Below are positions 244 to 7,372 of a stretch of DNA of 7,416 bases, piece by piece. Location of the stretch: assembly GCA_000004985.1 (NCBI GenBank), contig GG739140.1. The stretch is one strand, 5' to 3'. Both the position numbers and the translations under genes were made by a program. This DNA is from Naegleria gruberi. Its lineage: Eukaryota. Positions within the stretch are counted from its first letter, which is position 1. Every line of letters starts with the position of its first letter. The notes beneath the pieces are model-generated. The model did no database searches and was not told the DNA's origin. It saw only the letters and a program-made list of their open reading frames with translations.

Positions 244-779
244 CAAGTTGGAGTTGAGCATTTCTACATTGGCATTGATTAGGAGATTGACAAGAGCCAT
301 TTCTACAAACTTTTGAACTATTGAAAATTTCACCATAGTAACTTCTTTACAAAGTTCTTACTAGTGATACAAAATCTCAATTAGAAATTGAATCTTATTT
401 ACAATTCGATTTTACAATTTCCAATAATTTCTCCAAAACCAAAGAATGGAGTACTCTCTGCCACTAGCTCAATATCTAGAGGAGTTGCTTTGACAGATAT
501 TTTCCAATTTACATCAGTTGAATTCTCTGCCTCTCAAATATTGCAACGGAATCAGAGATTTCATCCATGAGTTTCTCTGTAACAACATATTTTCATTGAA
601 AAAGGTTGGTAAAAAGACTACAGCACCACAGGTTCCCAAGTTGTCTCCAACCTCAGTACTGATGTGGCTCGACGATGCTTAACTTCTCAAATCGGACGGG
701 ATGAGGTGCATTCATCGTGATATGGCCGTAGCCATTCATAACCTTAAATAGCAAAATATGAATCAGTTCAACATTGCAA

Positions 780-869: not shown

Positions 870-2189
870 TTATTTGAATTGGGCAAAAAATTCCTCTATA
901 TTTTCTAATACATTATCAAAAGTGACACTTTGGAGCTCTTTTAAAGGTTTCAGATGTGAATAATCGTAATTTGTATCTGTTTCATCACACGTTCCTTCTT
1001 CTGGTTCTCCAACTCTGAAAAAACAATAAGGAGTCCAATAGAATATTTCGTTAGAAGCTTCTCCACAAATTACAATTTCGTCATATCCACTAACAATAAC
1101 ACAATAATGGTGCCTTCCATTAACATAATAAAGACTCTTTTCTTGATAATCAAAATCATGGACATCGACTATTGGCTCCGAGTAAAGGGCATGAGCATCC
1201 TTATAAGCTCCATAGGTTTGATAGTCTATGTCATCTCTATTGATAGCTCTATAATTTGCAATGAGATTTGAGACATACTCAAAAGCTTCATCTTTGATTT
1301 TTGGATTTTTGATTGTTTTGACATCTCCATAATCATAAGCTGCAGTGAGCTCTTCATCTATCCAAAATATAGTAAGAGGATCAAGATCCAAACCATCATC
1401 TCCTATTTGACCAGCTTGAATTGGGGCAGATTTAGTTTTTCTTTTTCTTGGTACAAGATTTTGCACATTTTTCCAAACTCTTTTACCAGGTTTCATATAA
1501 TTGACAAGATATCCTCGACTATACACCAAACCGACAATACAGGCACAAATAGACTCGAAATCTAAATTTTCCTCCAATATTCCATCAATGAATTGTTTCA
1601 CTTTCTTTTGGATCTTTCTTTTACGATTCGAATAGCACTCCCTTAAAAACTTATTCTCTGATTTATCTAGCAAGAGAATCCTGAAATATTGATACCCGTA
1701 AACTTCTTCATCATCTCCACCATTTATATGATCAGGAAAAAACATTAAAAGCTTGAATTTCCCACCATTTGACTTTCTCAAAGTAACTATGAATTTATAC
1801 TCTCCATTTTTCAAAAAGCATTTTCCTGAAATGAATTGATTTGCAATTTCTGGAATATAGTATTTGTTGCCTTTTTTAGGATAGGAAGCAAAAGATGCCA
1901 TCGATTTGTAAACTAATTCTATTACATATTTAGTCATTCTTTCCGTATGTCTTAAATCATCTCCTGATTTCAATAAGTCAATTAACGAATCTAGTTGATA
2001 AGGCACTGGACATTGACGATAATCATTAACATCTATTCTACGATTATATTTTTTTTCTCCAAAATAACTAATTATAGGACTTTGATTCTTCGTTTTTCCA
2101 TTATTATTATTAGATGGAGGAGGTGGTTCTTTGACATAATTATAAGTATTGAGAATAAAGTTCANATAATAATCGACACAAGTGATGCC
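870..2189 (-). CDS. Hypothetical protein, partial. The reading frame is open from the gap edge at 2189 to a TAA stop at 870-872, at least 440 aa. The first in-frame ATG is at 1935-1937; the ORF-track start at 2006 is a GTG. The true N-terminus is probably in or beyond gap 1. No domain recognised.
   Basis: The six-frame track gives a 378-aa ORF. I extended the same frame upstream by hand through 2007-2189 without a stop (..GITCVDYYxNFILNTYNYVKEPPPPSNNNNGKTKNQSPIISYFGEKKYNRRIDVNDYRQCPV-PYQLDS..). The long uninterrupted ORF in AT-rich DNA and its non-repetitive, compositionally protein-like sequence support a real single-exon coding region. Confidence 0.7.
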   Translation of the reverse strand, partial: GITCVDYYXNFILNTYNYVKEPPPPSNNNNGKTKNQSPIISYFGEKKYNRRIDVNDYRQCPVPYQLDSLIDLLKSGDDLRHTERMTKYVIELVYKSMASFASYPKKGNKYYIPEIANQFISGKCFLKNGEYKFIVTLRKSNGGKFKLLMFFPDHINGGDDEEVYGYQYFRILLLDKSENKFLRECYSNRKRKIQKKVKQFIDGILEENLDFESICACIVGLVYSRGYLVNYMKPGKRVWKNVQNLVPRKRKTKSAPIQAGQIGDDGLDLDPLTIFWIDEELTAAYDYGDVKTIKNPKIKDEAFEYVSNLIANYRAINRDDIDYQTYGAYKDAHALYSEPIVDVHDFDYQEKSLYYVNGRHHYCVIVSGYDEIVICGEASNEIFYWTPYCFFRVGEPEEGTCDETDTNYDYSHLKPLKELQSVTFDNVLENIEEFFAQFK

Positions 2190-2817: not shown

Positions 2818-2902
2818 TGGGAAGTACTGCAGACATTATCTACCTCTTAGCATCTCCGATAAATATCATCAATTATTTTAATAATCAGTTGGCAATGATT
2901 TT

Positions 2903-3429
2903 GATGCAAATAATTACTTTTAAACTCTCCATTACTAAAATTTTCCAATAACAATCACTATTATTAATAATATTTGGACAATGTAGAGATGATGTGGTTT
3001 ATTCTACGATAGAATCAGGCTATTGGTGTTGTCCTATTTTTAATTTAAATGAATCATGATGAATAACCAGAAGTTGACAAAAACACAAAATGATGAAAAA
3101 CTGATAATAAATATATTGTTTATTATGTATTTGAATAGTAGTGATGAAAGACATTTTCCGAGTTGGTGAAGTTAATGTTGAGATATGGTCCATGTTGAAA
3201 ATCACAAAATTACTATTATTATGATAACAATGATGGTTGGTAGTTGTTCCGATGATGTACCAACTTGAATTTTTCCAAATATAATAACATTATTTCCAAA
3301 TCATGATGAACAATTAAATTCCAAAAATTCCTATTATTACTATTATACAAATGATGCTGAGATGAAGTGCTGAAATTCTTCGAGTTTCATGATGTGAAAC
3401 CACTCCAATAATCAACAAAGTCGTGATGT
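2903..3429 (+). repeat. Non-coding cluster of 11 TGATG pentamers. 8 of them are ATGATG (at 2989, 3056, 3090, 3230, 3252, 3303, 3351, 3389). 2 are GTGATG (3141, 3424). One is TGATGCAAA (2903). Spacing is irregular, about 20-90 nt.
   Basis: Counted by eye on the plus strand. The rest of the roughly 5.4 kb of non-N sequence contains only about 2 ATGATG/CATCAT hexamers. Rough expectation for ATGATG in 440 bp at this composition is well under 1. Confidence 0.45.
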
Positions 3430-3477
3430 TACTGCTTGCCAATATTTAGTAAATTTACATCTAATAGGTTAATCTTT

Positions 3478-3876
3478 TTAACTTACAATCTCACAATACT
3501 TTTTAAGATATTCAAAACTTGGAGGTACGTTCAATAATATCAATGGTATCAACATTTTGAATCGAGTTCCAAAAATTACTGATCTTTCCTCCACATTCTT
3601 CATATATTTCACAAATGAATGCTCGTTCACCTTCTTTTCATTCAAAATATGTACAGTGTGAAACTTTCTCAAATTATCAGAAACTGTTTTGTAAATTTTG
3701 TATTGAACAGATTTTTTGGAGAAGGTTTCCAGCAATTCTTGACAATTTCTAATCTTGAATAATAACCAATTGGATAAGAGTGTTTTCCAGATTATTTCAA
3801 ACCGATCGAGTTGATACCATCCCTTGCAGACTAACATACAGGACATGCCATCTCTGATGTCCAAATGTTCCATCAC
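3478..3876 (-). CDS. Small F-box protein. The F-box core is ..TLRHVMEHLDIRDGMSCMLVCKGWYQL.., followed by about 100 aa with no recognised domain. The annotated start is a GTG at 3876, with an ATG at 3871-3873. The N-terminal part of the F-box is in a different frame (see findings).
   Basis: The translated motif L..H...HLD.RD...C.LVCKGW..L matches the F-box consensus (LPxEIL..IL..LD..DL...R.VCK.W..L). The ORF is 132 aa from the track and the frame stays open upstream to a TGA at 3904-3906. Confidence 0.6.
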   Translation of the reverse strand: MMEHLDIRDGMSCMLVCKGWYQLDRFEIIWKTLLSNWLLFKIRNCQELLETFSKKSVQYKIYKTVSDNLRKFHTVHILNEKKVNEHSFVKYMKNVEERSVIFGTRFKMLIPLILLNVPPSFEYLKKYCEIVS

Positions 3877-3949
3877 GTGCCTGAGTGTGTGTCCGGATGA
3901 ATTTCATGTTGAGCCATTTTTTTTGTAATTGAAAAAGTTCTAGAATCTG

Positions 3950-3964: not shown

Positions 3965-4120
3965 TCCATTTCCACCTCTCTGATTATTCTTATTATTTCA
4001 TTGTCCAAGAATTACTACTGTTCATCTTTTGTTTTTCAGTTCCGATCTAAATTGATGAGAAGATATGATAGGTGAGAATTTCCTTTTAATTTTTTAATTG
4101 AAAATAAATAAATTAAAAAA

Positions 4121-4351
4121 ATGTCTCAACAACCGTCAATGAATCACACAACTTGGTTTGATCAAGATTTGCTGTTGGCCAATATATTTCTCTATTTACA
4201 TCCGTATGAATTATTTGATAATTCTAAATTATCTTCATGTAGAAATGTTTGTAGATCATGGAATGGTTTAATTTGTGGTGAAGAATTTTGTAAATTTTAT
4301 TTTGAAAACCTCGTTTTGTTGTTATTCGTCCGAACCTTTATTAATCAGTAA
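4121..4351 (+). CDS. F-box protein, first coding exon of a partial gene. MSQQPSMNHTTWFDQDLLLANIFLYLHPYELFDNSKLSSCRNVCRSWNGLICGEEF.. is a complete F-box. The remainder of the gene, the substrate-binding domain, presumably lies in gap 2.
   Basis: Clear F-box consensus (DLLLANIFLYLHPYEL...CRNVCRSWNGLI). The start codon sits in an AAAAAAATG context typical of nematodes. The ORF stops 1 nt before the gap unless the candidate intron at 4290-4348 is used. Confidence 0.7.
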   Translation: MSQQPSMNHTTWFDQDLLLANIFLYLHPYELFDNSKLSSCRNVCRSWNGLICGEEFCKFYFENLVLLLFVRTFINQ

Positions 4352-5707
4352 NNNNNNNNNNNNNNNNNNNNNNNNNNNNNNNNNNNNNNNNNNNNNNNNN
4401 NNNNNNNNNNNNNNNNNNNNNNNNNNNNNNNNNNNNNNNNNNNNNNNNNNNNNNNNNNNNNNNNNNNNNNNNNNNNNNNNNNNNNNNNNNNNNNNNNNNN
4501 NNNNNNNNNNNNNNNNNNNNNNNNNNNNNNNNNNNNNNNNNNNNNNNNNNNNNNNNNNNNNNNNNNNNNNNNNNNNNNNNNNNNNNNNNNNNNNNNNNNN
4601 NNNNNNNNNNNNNNNNNNNNNNNNNNNNNNNNNNNNNNNNNNNNNNNNNNNNNNNNNNNNNNNNNNNNNNNNNNNNNNNNNNNNNNNNNNNNNNNNNNNN
4701 NNNNNNNNNNNNNNNNNNNNNNNNNNNNNNNNNNNNNNNNNNNNNNNNNNNNNNNNNNNNNNNNNNNNNNNNNNNNNNNNNNNNNNNNNNNNNNNNNNNN
4801 NNNNNNNNNNNNNNNNNNNNNNNNNNNNNNNNNNNNNNNNNNNNNNNNNNNNNNNNNNNNNNNNNNNNNNNNNNNNNNNNNNNNNNNNNNNNNNNNNNNN
4901 NNNNNNNNNNNNNNNNNNNNNNNNNNNNNNNNNNNNNNNNNNNNNNNNNNNNNNNNNNNNNNNNNNNNNNNNNNNNNNNNNNNNNNNNNNNNNNNNNNNN
5001 NNNNNNNNNNNNNNNNNNNNNNNNNNNNNNNNNNNNNNNNNNNNNNNNNNNNNNNNNNNNNNNNNNNNNNNNNNNNNNNNNNNNNNNNNNNNNNNNNNNN
5101 NNNNNNNNNNNNNNNNNNNNNNNNNNNNNNNNNNNNNNNNNNNNNNNNNNNNNNNNNNNNNNNNNNNNNNNNNNNNNNNNNNNNNNNNNNNNNNNNNNNN
5201 NNNNNNNNNNNNNNNNNNNNNNNNNNNNNNNNNNNNNNNNNNNNNNNNNNNNNNNNNNNNNNNNNNNNNNNNNNNNNNNNNNNNNNNNNNNNNNNNNNNN
5301 NNNNNNNNNNNNNNNNNNNNNNNNNNNNNNNNNNNNNNNNNNNNNNNNNNNNNNNNNNNNNNNNNNNNNNNNNNNNNNNNNNNNNNNNNNNNNNNNNNNN
5401 NNNNNNNNNNNNNNNNNNNNNNNNNNNNNNNNNNNNNNNNNNNNNNNNNNNNNNNNNNNNNNNNNNNNNNNNNNNNNNNNNNNNNNNNNNNNNNNNNNNN
5501 NNNNNNNNNNNNNNNNNNNNNNNNNNNNNNNNNNNNNNNNNNNNNNNNNNNNNNNNNNNNNNNNNNNNNNNNNNNNNNNNNNNNNNNNNNNNNNNNNNNN
5601 NNNNNNNNNNNNNNNNNNNNNNNNNNNNNNNNNNNNNNNNNNNNNNNNNNNNNNNNNNNNNNNNNNNNNNNNNNNNNNNNNNNNNNNNNNNNNNNNNNNN
5701 NNNNNNN
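4352..5707. other. Assembly gap of 1356 N.
   Basis: Run of n characters. Confidence 0.99.
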
Positions 5708-6267
5708 TCATAATCTGAAAGAAATATTTTCCCTCCTTTTCTGTCAATCGCCAATCCTAATGGTTGACTAAAATGAATATTCTCTGCGTCTTCAATTGTA
5801 TGTATCAATATCCATTCATTTTCGTTCATTTCATCATAAATAAAACATGTATTATGAAAAAGTTCAGCAACAAGCATTCTTTTTGGATTGATGAAAACAA
5901 TATCCGTCACTGTTTTGATTTTTTCAAGTTTCAACTCTTTAATGACCTTTCCATTCACATTCACAGTATCTATTATATCCATAGCTCCTTGGGTACTAAA
6001 TCTGAATAATTGTTTCTGATTTCCAATTATTCTAATTGCCATTCCATACAAATGATTTCTTTCAATTTTCCAAATACAATCAGCACTTGATCCTAATCTC
6101 ATTAAATCCTTCACTCTATATTTAAAAGTATACATATCCTCTACAAAATAAATAGCATCATTTTGTTCATGATCAAAATTCTCTTCAATTAACAAGCCAG
6201 TCACTCCTCCTTCAACAAAAAAAGCTCCCAAATATTCATGGTTAGTCAAATTTTCTTGCTTGAGTTT
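5708..6267 (-). CDS. Hypothetical protein, partial. The frame is open from an upstream TAA at 6268-6270 down to the gap edge at 5708, about 186 aa visible. The first in-frame ATG is at 6133-6135. The C-terminus is lost in gap 2. No domain recognised; ..HFSQPLGLAIDRKGGKIFLSDY is vaguely reminiscent of a beta-propeller/NHL-like blade, which I cannot substantiate.
   Basis: The track ORF of 634 'aa' is mostly N; the real part is residues 1-181. I extended the frame upstream by hand. The listed start at 6249 is a TTG, so the start is either the ATG at 6135 or an unseen upstream exon. Confidence 0.5.
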
Positions 6268-6500: not shown

Positions 6501-6572
6501 TCCCGTGTAGTCCAATGGCTAGGATACCTGGCTTTCACCCAGGAGGTCCGGGTTCAATTCCCGGCATGGGAG
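6501..6572 (+). tRNA. tRNA-Glu, anticodon TTC (UUC), 72 nt.
   Basis: Hand-folded cloverleaf. Acceptor stem TCCCGTG/CATGGGA with one G-T pair. D-arm GTCC..GGAT. Anticodon stem CCTGG/CCAGG with loop CTTTCAC (U33, anticodon TTC, A37). T-arm CCGGG-TTCAATT-CCCGG. Discriminator G. The A-box (TAGTCCAATGG) and B-box (GGTTCAATTCC) are intact. It closely resembles canonical eukaryotic tRNA-Glu(UUC). Confidence 0.92.
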
Positions 6573-6636: not shown

Positions 6637-7321
6637 CTAGACCTTCATTTTGGGTAAAATGCTTAGCTCCTTTTCCAATTGTTTCTCATATGATGCTTGG
6701 AAACGAGTATAATTATCCAACATGTTGTGTTCACAAGCTGTTTGAATTCTATCAAATATTTCAGGAGTGATGGCAAAGAGGAAACTCATATCTTGTGGAT
6801 TTGTGGAAGTTTGCTTTGGAGAAATATTCAATTTTGGAGAAGGTGAAACATTTCCATTTTTAGAAGCAAAATTAATGGTACTGTCTTTTAGGGATTTGAA
6901 GATTTTCTCAATTTCTGGAATTCCAAAATCCTTTCTTGAAATGTTCAATTCAAGAGGAGCTCCAATTCGAATATAAGTATTACAAATATTGTAAAATAAT
7001 TCTCTTCTTTGTTTTTCTGATTTGATTGTTTTGAATTTCTCAATGGCATTCCACATCATGACATCTTCACATGCAAAACATTTTTCTGAGAATTTCAGAA
7101 AGAGATTATTCCACTTTTCATTCAGTAAAATCTTTCGAATGCTACTTTCAGAAGGTTTCGAATGTTGAAGTTTAGAATCAACTGATGGAGTGCTTTCTGT
7201 TTGTTGTTTCTTGTCAGATTTGAATCTTTGAAGGAAGAATACAGGATACGTGAATGAAATTAATGTATCCCACATATTTCCAATTAAAATTGTAATCGTC
7301 CATGGGAAATAATAATCAATA
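6637..7321 (-). CDS. RGS-domain protein, last exon. The first in-frame ATG is at 7273-7275. The frame is open upstream to a candidate splice acceptor at 7321. It has a hydrophobic N-terminal segment (IDYYFPWTITILIGNMWDTLISFTYPVFFLQRF), then an RGS domain with one roughly 40-aa insert, and the protein ends about 15 aa after the domain.
   Basis: The translation matches RGS-domain hallmarks in three places: FLKFSEKCFACEDVMMWNAIEKFK; ELFYNICNTYIRIGAPLELNIS; IFDRIQTACEHNMLDNYTRFQASYEKQL. Corresponding consensus pieces: FL.SEFSEENLEFW.A.E.FK; A..IY..Y....AP.E.N.D; F..AQ......M..DSY.RFL.S..Y. The ORF is 212 aa from the ATG. Confidence 0.8.
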
Positions 7322-7372
7322 CTTTACAAAATATTACAATTATTATTCTAATCTCAGATATATATTACTTAC
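7322..7372 (-). other. Candidate 51-nt intron of the RGS gene (GTAAGT...AAAG), removing the only in-frame stop upstream of the ATG at 7275.
   Basis: Minus strand reads ..acaaccta|GTAAGTaatatatatctgagattagaataataattgtaatattttgtaaAG|tattgat... The 51-nt length is typical of Caenorhabditis-like small introns and the donor is consensus. The acceptor has A rather than C at -3. Confidence 0.35.

Follow-up and report, generated by a model that had tools for sequence, protein, structure and literature searches.

A dense one-strand cluster of ATGATG words in Naegleria gruberi and the hidden period of about 122 nt in its flanks

The short word TGATG occurs eleven times on one strand between positions 2902 and 3428 of a small Naegleria gruberi scaffold and is absent from the other strand of the same region. 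Such a cluster raises the question of whether the word is a site that is kept for what binds it, a trace of lost coding sequence or small RNA genes, or the by-product of how the region grew. The window analysed here is the entire 7416-bp draft scaffold. A remark on piRNA motifs in the preliminary description of this DNA implied a nematode setting, which the identity of the organism overturns. The features that frame the cluster are the following.

870-2189, minus strand: NAEGRDRAFT_76770, an orphan gene whose open frame continues into assembly gap 1
2190-2817: assembly gap 1
2902-3428, plus strand: eleven exact TGATG copies located by pattern search
3478-3917, minus strand: an unannotated F-box ORF, with its ATG at 3917, an open frame at 3876-3481 and a stop at 3480-3478

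The word cluster and the known elements it resembles

The dense one-strand ATGATG/TGATG cluster is real. Its plus-strand copies start at 2902, 2990, 3057, 3091, 3142, 3231, 3253, 3304, 3352, 3390 and 3424, with start-to-start spacings of 22-89 nt. The base before TGATG is A in eight of the eleven, G in two and T in one, so that there are 8 ATGATG, 2 GTGATG and 1 TTGATG; on the minus strand the copies read CATCA[T/C/A]. This tally agrees with the 8 ATGATG and 2 GTGATG counted previously and supplies the third class. All of the extended words that had been quoted (TGATGCAAA, TGATGAAAAAC, TGATGAAAGAC, TGATGAATAAC, TGATGAACAAT and TGATGTGAAAC) are present, and all eleven copies were located, although the start and the end of the cluster had each been placed one base off.

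Enrichment was measured against 5000 dinucleotide-preserving shuffles of 2895-3435. TGATG was observed 11 times compared with a shuffle mean of 2.8 and a maximum of 9 (0/5000 reach 11), and ATGATG 8 times compared with a mean of 1.2 and a maximum of 6, so both words exceed every shuffle. In the 4866 nt of scaffold outside the region there are 8 plus-strand and 12 minus-strand copies of TGATG, which corresponds to a density of 16.6 per kb in the region and ~2 per kb per strand elsewhere, a difference of ~8 times. Translation also bore out the stops reported in all six frames; the longest stop-free stretches, of 89 and 55 codons, are on the minus strand. The gene context had been read correctly as well: the F-box ORF on the minus strand has the cluster on its 3' side, and the large gene of that strand which enters gap 1 has it on its upstream side. 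That gene, NAEGRDRAFT_76770, is the downstream neighbour on the same strand. Its single database match is its own entry, and a search for environmental relatives from which synteny could be read found none.

TGATG is also the half-site of C/EBP-ATF composite elements (TGATGNAAT), and a homotypic cluster of such bZIP sites had been put forward as an explanation. The first copy, TGATGCAAA, is one mismatch from TGATGCAAT. Over the eleven copies in order, however, the mismatches to TGATGCAAT number 1, 3, 3, 2, 2, 4, 3, 3, 3, 3 and 3, so that a single copy lies within one mismatch, and, unlike in a composite element, the second half-site is missing in 10 of 11. The word TGATGNAAN fits 3 of 11 copies compared with 1.44 expected (P=0.17). 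No CRE, AP-1, C/EBP or PAR site and no palindromic bZIP site was found in the region, and the strictly one-way arrangement of all copies would have P~0.001 if orientation were free. C/EBP-ATF4 factors are metazoan. The bZIP candidate failed both the consensus and the half-site census.

Clusters of C/D-box snoRNA genes, which are polycistronic in plants and Euglenozoa, likewise have RUGAUGA-like words that recur every few tens of nucleotides along a single strand. Four copies here contain a C-box-like RTGATGA, and an Rfam search at E<=10 returned weak matches to archaeal sR2 (3137-3200, 19.9 bits) and sR5 (3053-3105, 15.8 bits). Both scores are below half of the gathering thresholds of 42 and 40 bits, respectively. 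In an explicit box-and-stem scan, which failed, only 3 plus-strand CTGA words were found for 11 C-like boxes, which allows 6 C..D pairs of 40-160 nt; the best terminal stem in any pair was 3 bp, where at least 4 bp are needed, and the C'-to-D spacer of the best candidate (3056-3104) was 4 nt, where at least about 10 nt are needed for a guide. Nor is there the fold stability that a snoRNA reading would predict. Unlike such gene clusters, the array thus has neither D boxes to match its C-like boxes nor terminal stems, spacers of guide length or support from a covariance model, and the earlier rejection of C/D snoRNAs is upheld. With the tests that were run contradicting them, a bZIP site cluster and a polycistronic C/D snoRNA cluster are both regarded as extremely improbable.

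A period of about 122 nt in the flanks

The positions of the motif taken alone show no significant period (P=0.42), so the claim of periodicity rests on the flanking sequence. Self-blastn gave offsets of 118, 119, 247, 248, 255 and 373 (~120 x n), and k-mer autocorrelation peaked at 122, 251 and 370. When the motif was masked, autocorrelation remained at lags 122 (z=8.3), 251 (z=8.4) and 374 (z=4.6) with dinucleotide shuffles as the null, and family-wise the observed maximum of 8.4 was greater than every maximum in 300 dinucleotide shuffles. The masked autocorrelation and the blastn offsets together give a head-to-tail period that is independent of the motif, as in a tandem repeat. The resulting array and its motif slots are listed below.

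2870-3602, minus strand: eroded tandem array of about 5-6 units, period ~122 nt (approximate boundaries)
2902-3394, plus strand: slot A, sub-type III, copies at 2902, 3142, 3253 and 3390 (phases 0, 118.5, 108 and 2, modulo 121.5)
3057-3428, plus strand: slot B, sub-type II, copies at 3057, 3304 and 3424 (phases 33.5, 37.5 and 36)
2990-3356, plus strand: slot C, sub-type I, copies at 2990, 3231 and 3352 (phases 88, 86 and 85.5) and a shifted copy at 3091

Ten of the eleven copies fall into three phase classes modulo 121.5 nt, and these coincide with three sub-types defined by the flanks. Sub-type I is preceded on the plus strand by ...TATTATTA..ACAA-ATGATG, reads HHLY or HHCY on the minus strand and is represented by flank repeats D2, D6 and D7. 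Sub-type II has the plus-strand flank AATC-ATGATG-AAnAA and the minus-strand reading [IV][VI]HHD, and its repeat families D1 and D3 show 81-83% identity over 16-18 nt. In sub-type III, the minus-strand translations of the first three copies are LHQNHCQ, FHHYYSN and VHHRNNYQ. The words CTATT, TTACT, TATTA and TCCAA are co-enriched and stand in the same order each time ahead of the motif. The earlier view that the spacing has no tandem period is therefore wrong; the spacing appears irregular because each unit has three slots and because indels have shifted them.

The array is heavily decayed, as indicated by the silence of TRF, which called no ~120-nt array at a minimum score of 30, and by pairwise global alignments of whole units, which were no better than shuffles (z<=2.1). 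Mean column identity in a MAFFT alignment of the units was 44%, and the islands beside motif copies are 70-93% identical. Conservation that is confined to islands suggests an array that is either very old or unevenly constrained.

Erosion can also be followed in the motif itself. One-mismatch versions of ATGATG number 10 on the plus strand compared with 4.9 expected (P=0.019) and 3 on the minus strand. Three of the ten are TTGATG/GTGATG copies already counted among the eleven, leaving seven additional ones.

2895-3367, plus strand: seven one-mismatch copies, at 2895 (ATGATT), 3122 (ATTATG), 3175 (ATGTTG), 3192 (ATGTTG), 3218 (ATTATG), 3221 (ATGATA) and 3362 (ATGAAG)

Mismatches occur at all positions of the hexamer, which is the pattern of erosion.

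The F-box ORF and the possible coding content of the array

At its high end the array extends over the final ~120 nt of the F-box ORF. As assembled, this ORF matches Pfam F-box-like (PF12937) at 20.4 bits, below the cut-off of 24.3, from profile position 14; when the frame is read further upstream the match begins at profile position 9. A frameshift of 2 nt lies in an (AC)4 run at 3892-3885, and removal of one AC brings PF12937 to 25.3 bits (cut-off 24.3) and F-box PF00646 to 22.9 bits (cut-off 20.5). A recognisable F-box domain thus lies upstream on the same strand, above the cut-offs only after the 2-nt correction. Pfam searches on X-masked frames found the F-box alone. No homologue of the minus-strand F-box ORF was found in 5.8 billion proteins, and a protein homology search with the F-box(+) ORF was without matches.

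Gene models that would carry the ORF across the array were also considered, with the following features.

3357-3486, minus strand: possible intron of 130 nt, hypothetical, its GTAAGT donor coinciding with the end of the ORF (3486) and its acceptor, the pyrimidine-rich ..CTCAG, ending at 3357
3119-3124, minus strand: AATAAA, candidate poly(A) signal, the first downstream of the F-box ORF
3003-2998, minus strand: AATAAA, further candidate poly(A) signal

The poly(A) signal AAUAAA is used by N. gruberi (PMC11529991). An intact multi-exon gene across the region was rejected, as minus-strand donors occur only at 3494 and 3486 and every exon chain meets stops. A ciliate-type alternative genetic code was rejected because the neighbouring genes are long standard-code ORFs and TGA occurs in frame in the region. 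A two-exon model is the sole survivor among the gene models and is speculative. In it, the hypothetical splice would let the ORF continue in frame into HHLYNSNN...PSLLS and a stop (3356-3222); GTAAGT occurs 2 times on the scaffold compared with about 3 expected from composition, which makes it weak as support for an intron.

F-box proteins normally have their repeat domains located after the F-box, and the array could accordingly be the decayed C-terminal repeat domain, of about 40 residues per repeat, of the upstream F-box protein. CATCAT would then be the remnant of a conserved His-His after hydrophobic residues, as in LIVHH, KLVHH, NVFHH, SVFHH and LVIHH, and in a weaker version three copies would still be coding, in the second exon at 3356-3222. 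Several observations fit this proposal. The array is directly 3' of the F-box ORF and overlaps it on the sense strand, the period of ~122 nt equals about 40 codons, and the 5' frameshift and missing annotation of the ORF make a dying gene plausible. One codon phase is common to 7 of 11 copies, 10 of 11 fall, as HH or HQ, within runs of 21 or more codons that have no stop, and two copies differ by a synonymous change of CAT to CAC alone. The GTAAGT donor and the CAG acceptor at 3357 would also give an in-frame join to a 45-codon HH-rich exon.

The tests of coding content gave the proposal no support. When the best 55-residue (HH) peptide was searched by phmmer against 1.84 billion representatives, one spurious, repeat-inflated match (P0002) was obtained, and no Pfam repeat family was found in any of the three minus frames at E<=10. 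The codon-usage score of -0.009 lies near the -0.07+-0.04 of intergenic sequence and shuffles and outside the 0.17-0.42 of genes, a test that is weak in power since held-out F-box ORFs also score low. Spacings divisible by 3 occur at the chance rate (3 of 10), and the biases in codon phase and open frame are not significant (about P 0.1 each). The 3-base periodicity is lost on randomising the motif (z falls from 4.7 to 1.5, in a low-power test), and every frame is interrupted by stops. The array resembles the pseudogenes of F-box birth and death in its same-strand position after an F-box, in its ~40-codon period and in the frameshifted, unannotated state of the F-box ORF itself. It is unlike F-box pseudogenes with LRR, WD40, Kelch or FNIP repeats in that none of these signatures, no homologue and no signal in codon usage or frame was found for it, and the repeat could not be placed in any protein family. 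Taken together, a coding origin is considered unlikely, while still deserving some weight.

Origin and possible function of the array

On balance, and with modest confidence, the TGATG cluster is probably the surviving signature of an old, nested and eroded tandem duplication, without a sequence-specific function of the motif today. A founder unit of ~122 nt would have carried ATGATG words, three or possibly four of them and all pointing the same way, which may have arisen by chance or by older triplet slippage. Unequal exchange or replication slippage would have produced about five or six head-to-tail copies of this unit, over a stretch running from the 3' end of the now frameshifted F-box ORF towards assembly gap 1, into which the low end of the array may run on. 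Substitutions and small indels would then have worn the units down, leaving only short islands beside motif copies alike. Duplication of this kind accounts for the local density, the single-strand polarity and most of the enrichment, and also for the fixed-order neighbouring words and the trail of one-mismatch copies.

Simple calculations are consistent with a neutral history. In a random 122-nt unit of the same composition, some pentamer with at least two G/C occurs three times with P~0.11, so the surprise is largely gone once the cluster is collapsed to one unit. Under a neutral retention of 0.85-0.93 per base, 11 exact copies are expected from 15-20 slots, and this modelled retention agrees with the 70-93% identity of the islands. 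Two observations count against neutrality. Four motif copies in the founder would be rare by chance (P~0.004), and the motif-bearing islands show much less decay than other parts of each unit, which is also expected from selection on the islands.

Sites for an RNA-binding protein in a UTR or intron had been the second candidate of the preliminary description. Selection might have kept the copies as candidate RNA or DNA binding sites, with tandem duplication multiplying them. In the RNA form, the site would be CAUCAU in a transcript of the minus strand, located either in the F-box gene (3' UTR or intron) or in the 5' region of NAEGRDRAFT_76770; in the DNA form, the candidate sites would lie upstream of NAEGRDRAFT_76770. 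Information content falls sharply outside the core hexamer, the islands at the copies have survived far better than other parts of the units, and the copies are strictly on the sense strand (as CAUCAU) for both flanking minus-strand genes. The minus-strand RNA is also less structured than 99 of 100 shuffles, as would suit a single-stranded binding platform; fold z-scores of +0.7 and +1.7 for the two strands led to the rejection of structured RNA. Against this, the sharp core is partly an ascertainment effect because exact matches were selected, the eroded copies mismatch at every position, and duplication by itself is enough to produce the polarity and the density. Literature searches turned up no known element of Naegleria that matches, and the literature on Naegleria snoRNAs, cis-elements and F-box families held nothing relevant besides the poly(A)-signal paper (PMC11529991). 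Retention of the copies as binding sites is accordingly judged quite unlikely.

A related and decidedly unlikely proposal is that the ATGATG/CAUCAU copies form a selected, strand-specific multi-site platform around which the array has decayed. Its most plausible form would place putative sites for a protein that binds single-stranded RNA in the transcript of the minus strand, within the 3' UTR or a long intron of the F-box gene or within the NAEGRDRAFT_76770 leader. The only pointers to it are the uneven decay, which has left preserved islands amid sequence at noise level, and a founder unit that may have had four copies. Elsewhere, clusters of YCAY words are bound by KH-domain RNA-binding proteins, for example Nova. 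The minus-strand RNA copy here is YCAUCAU, which contains overlapping YCAY words, and, as in YCAY clusters, the copies stand close together in RNA that lacks structure, in the sense orientation relative to the neighbouring genes. The resemblance is purely formal, and unlike in the KH systems, the clustering here is explained by duplication. To our knowledge, no YCAY/KH-type system has been described in Naegleria.

The region might instead be one copy of a dispersed Naegleria repeat family with the motif in its consensus, such as a non-autonomous transposon that has short repeats in internal or subterminal positions. The small, gap-ridden scaffold, with a gap directly adjoining the array, is typical of repeat-rich sequence, and a weak 17-nt inverted repeat (I8, 2932-2948 / 3436-3452) brackets most of the cluster. 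This inverted repeat is, however, 76% complementary and one of 38 similar pairs at chance level. Self-blastn found no second copy of the array elsewhere on the scaffold, protein searches matched no predicted protein from another copy, and no transposase lies nearby, the neighbour being an orphan with only its own database entry. A dispersed family is thus considered highly unlikely. A decayed interspersed repeat was the closest of the three candidates offered in the preliminary description; the decayed repeat stands, while the form that can be demonstrated is a local tandem array of ~122-nt units.

The array is best explained as an ordinary kind of sequence and not as a bank of transcription-factor sites or a set of small RNA genes. 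Its closest relatives are degenerate minisatellites or higher-order tandem repeats, with which it shares head-to-tail units of ~122 nt, offsets of 1x, 2x and 3x the period, a single polarity, a fixed order of co-enriched words, worn copies and an adjoining assembly gap. It differs from the tandem repeats that are usually annotated in its far greater decay, such that TRF fails and only the islands at the motif remain alike, and in its low copy number of about 5-6.

A selected platform, if true, would be the first described cis-element cluster of its type in a heterolobosean; we know of almost no cis-elements in the lineage of Naegleria, and motif-specific conservation, if found, would be a lead to an unknown regulatory element. 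For clusters of this kind in general, the flanks of strand-pure short words should be tested for hidden periodicity before a binding-site reading is adopted. If the favoured reading of an eroded tandem duplication is true, the locus is one more such duplication in a fast-evolving and poorly assembled region of the N. gruberi genome, beside what appears to be a dying F-box gene.

Motif cluster and its hidden period

On the plus strand, TGATG starts at 2902, 2990, 3057, 3091, 3142, 3231, 3253, 3304, 3352, 3390 and 3424, with eight copies reading ATGATG, two GTGATG and one TTGATG; a pattern search found no TGATG on the minus strand of the cluster stretch. In 5000 dinucleotide-preserving shuffles of 2895-3435, TGATG averaged 2.8 occurrences (maximum 9) against 11 observed, and ATGATG 1.2 (maximum 6) against 8. 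The density of TGATG is 16.6/kb in the cluster versus about 2/kb per strand over the remaining 4.9 kb. The dense plus-strand cluster of the preliminary description is thereby confirmed, as are stops in all six frames of the region; its location was right, but its exact ends were one base off.

The same description held that the spacing had no tandem period, which proved incorrect. Self-comparison gave weak matches with offsets clustering at 118, 119, 247, 248, 255 and 373 nt, and in the 8-mer autocorrelation (at most one mismatch, 2818-3640) lags 122, 251 and 370 stand out as peaks. As a control for peaks made by the motif itself, every NTGATG was masked, with dinucleotide-preserving shuffles as the null. 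Peaks persisted at lags 122 (z=8.3), 251 (z=8.4) and 374 (z=4.6); family-wise, the highest real peak stood above the maximum of all 300 shuffles. Since they survive masking, the flanks are periodic in their own right, repeating at about 122 nt independently of the motif. Motif positions alone gave no significant period (P=0.42 when the period is chosen freely), so the claim of periodicity rests on the flanks, whose similarity was used to define three sub-types of motif copies.

Sub-types of motif copies defined by flank similarity
3057, 3304, 3424, plus strand: AATC-ATGATG-AAnAA
2990, 3231, 3352, plus strand: TATTATTA..ACAA-ATGATG
2902, 3142, 3253, plus strand: third sub-type

The sub-types match three phase classes modulo 121.5 nt (about 35, 86 and 0); 3390 joins the third class by position, leaving 3091 as the sole out-of-register copy. 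CTATT, TTACT, TATTA and TCCAA are also enriched, and precede the motif in the same order each time.

At 3351-3373 (plus strand), ATGATGCTGAGATGAAGTGCTGA places C-box-like and D-box-like words in abutment and resembles a kink-turn motif, without stems or guide spacers. This string aligns with unit 2977-2996 as two neighbouring motif slots, a different slot being lost in each unit.

Scaffold, neighbouring genes and F-box ORFs

In the draft assembly of N. gruberi, the window makes up one complete small scaffold, with a GC content of 30-33% throughout. Most likely, assembly gaps account for the N runs at 2190-2817 (gap 1) and 4352-5707 (gap 2) and for a lone N at 2165.

Annotated features of the scaffold
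615-733, minus strand: 5S rRNA gene (Rfam, 105 bits, E 5e-23)
3478-3876, minus strand: ORF with weak F-box (Pfam)
3892-3885, minus strand: 2-nt frameshift in an (AC)4 run, ACACACAC, parting ATG 3917 from the F-box frame
4121-4351, plus strand: ORF with weak F-box (Pfam), entering gap 2
5708-6249, minus strand: open frame of 180 codons that enters gap 2, carrying at its end a weak match to the NHL repeat (Pfam E 0.11)
6501-6572, plus strand: tRNA-Glu(UUC) gene (ARAGORN/Rfam)
6637-7275, minus strand: ORF with RGS domain (Pfam)

The minus-strand ORF at 870-2006 has 100% identity with the Naegleria gruberi predicted protein NAEGRDRAFT_76770, a strict orphan that matched only itself in 5.8 billion proteins and carries no Pfam domain. 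The annotation gives it 355 aa, starting at an internal ATG; upstream of that ATG no stop interrupts the frame over a minimum of 84 further codons up to gap 1 (GITCVDYY.NFILNTYNYVKEPPPPSNNNNG...; 870-2189, minus strand), and the model therefore probably lacks the 5' part of the gene. The complete 5S rRNA gene lies isolated among protein-coding ORFs, suggesting that 5S genes are dispersed rather than arrayed on this scaffold. The tRNA-Glu(UUC) gene, of eukaryotic type, is flanked by the NHL-like and RGS-domain ORFs and is followed within a few bases by TTTTTT, a run resembling a Pol III terminator. The NHL-like frame probably encodes the N-terminal portion of a beta-propeller, the rest of the protein being lost in gap 2. 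Upstream of the RGS ORF, a probable 51-nt intron (7322-7372, minus strand, GTAAGTAATA...TTTTGTAAAG) is preceded by the hydrophobic open stretch VLYAVPSLFTIFTT; an additional exon of the RGS gene thus likely lies upstream and runs off the scaffold end.

The minus-strand F-box ORF is damaged as assembled, ATG 3917 opening MAQHEIHPDT and the F-box (LRHVMEHLD...) lying in another frame. With the (AC)4 run shortened by one AC, the F-box-like score rose from 20.4 to 25.3 bits (Pfam cut-off 24.3) and the F-box score was 22.9 bits (cut-off 20.5). Either the frameshift is real and pseudogenising or, given the draft quality of the scaffold, it is a sequencing error. For both F-box ORFs, no homologue and no annotated N. 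gruberi protein was found in 5.8 billion sequences. They stand head-to-head, and a 17-nt inverted repeat at their starts (3907-3923 / 4115-4131, 94% complementary, AAAAAAATGGCTCAACA / AAAAAAATGTCTCAACA) suggests a duplicated pair with a common bidirectional promoter region of about 200 nt, yet the proteins share the F-box core only. A 21-nt direct repeat of 90% identity (3687-3707 / 4286-4306, plus strand, TTTTGTAAATTTTGTATTGAA / TTTTGTAAATTTTATTTTGAA) falls in both ORFs, on the sense strand of one but the antisense strand of the other, and is probably due to chance (E 0.002 in this small region).

Coding and regulatory readings of the motif

The array could be a coding relic, the former repeat domain of an F-box protein, which is considered unlikely. 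Read on the minus strand, the motif is CAT-CAT, which would encode His-His, here preceded by hydrophobic residues (LIVHH, KLVHH, NVFHH, SVFHH, LVIHH); 7 of the 11 copies have their codon phase in common, and the period of about 40 codons comes immediately after an F-box. However, no minus frame matched a Pfam repeat family at E<=10, and only three of ten spacings are divisible by three. A phmmer search of 1.84 billion representatives with the best open 55-residue peptide (3386-3222) matched P0002 alone; its 40 bits accumulate over 11 copies of an unrelated repeat of about 88 residues, each giving the same weak low-complexity match. Codon usage scored like intergenic DNA and shuffles, a low-power comparison in which held-out F-box ORFs also score poorly, and the strong local 3-base periodicity dropped from z=4.7 to z=1.5 once the motif, itself (ATG)2, was randomised. 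Decayed F-box repeat domains resemble the array in position only. GTAAGT stands exactly at the end of the minus-strand F-box ORF; splicing from it to 3357, where there is a pyrimidine-rich CAG acceptor, would keep the frame and add an HH-rich exon of 45 codons. Downstream, the minus strand carries at 3124 an AATAAA, which N. gruberi uses as its poly(A) signal (PMC11529991). From these sequence signals a two-exon gene model is possible but speculative.

The bZIP sites of C/EBP-ATF type proposed earlier fared poorly: the first copy alone lies within one mismatch of TGATGCAAT, TGATGNAAN is fitted by 3 of 11 copies versus 1.44 expected (P=0.17), and orientation is identical in all 11 (P about 0.001 under free orientation). 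No CRE, AP-1, C/EBP or PAR sites were found in the cluster region. The poor fit to C/D-box snoRNAs, already remarked, was borne out by full RTGATGA in four copies versus only three CTGA on that strand, terminal stems of at most 3 bp in all six possible C..D pairs, and Rfam scores of 19.9 and 15.8 bits versus thresholds of 42 and 40. Against a structured RNA, neither strand folded better than shuffles (z +0.72, +1.70). C/D snoRNA clusters and C/EBP-ATF elements share the five-base word only with this cluster, which lacks their defining features; jointly, the bZIP and snoRNA readings are extremely improbable.

Erosion and origin of the array

The array is very decayed. One-mismatch ATGATG hexamers number 10 on the plus strand versus 4.9 expected (P=0.019) and 3 on the minus strand; three of the ten are the TTGATG and GTGATG copies already among the 11, leaving seven additional eroded sites, and mismatches are spread over every hexamer position. 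TRF did not report the array, MAFFT alignment of seven units gave a mean column identity of 44%, and global alignments of whole units were no better than shuffles (z<=2.1). Islands of 13-47 nt survive at 70-93% identity, nearly all beside a motif copy, and the pair 3319-3332 / 3567-3580 puts the first unit within the 3' part of the minus-strand F-box ORF.

The best explanation of the motif cluster, favoured with modest confidence, is neutral decayed tandem duplication. A founder unit of about 122 nt with three, perhaps four, same-strand ATGATG words would have been duplicated some five or six times in head-to-tail fashion, its units eroding since. Such a history would account for the density, polarity, pseudo-irregular spacing, ordered co-enriched words and decayed copies. 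In a random 122-nt unit of the same composition, some pentamer with at least two G/C occurs three times with P of about 0.11 and four times with 0.004; most of the statistical surprise is gone once the duplication is collapsed to one founder unit. Neutral retention of 0.85-0.93 per base yields 11 exact copies from 15-20 slots, consistent with island identity.

Neutral duplication poorly explains the better preservation of motif-side islands relative to the rest of the unit. AT-rich, indel-prone spacers may be the reason for this uneven decay, but the same pattern would result if the islands had been under selection, whether as binding sites or as segments that once were coding. A selected strand-specific element cluster is judged quite improbable, and membership of a dispersed repeat family more doubtful still. 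The array shows the periodicity that defines degenerate minisatellite-like arrays, whereas whole-unit alignability is absent. In kind it is such an array, a new instance of a known, ordinary sequence type.
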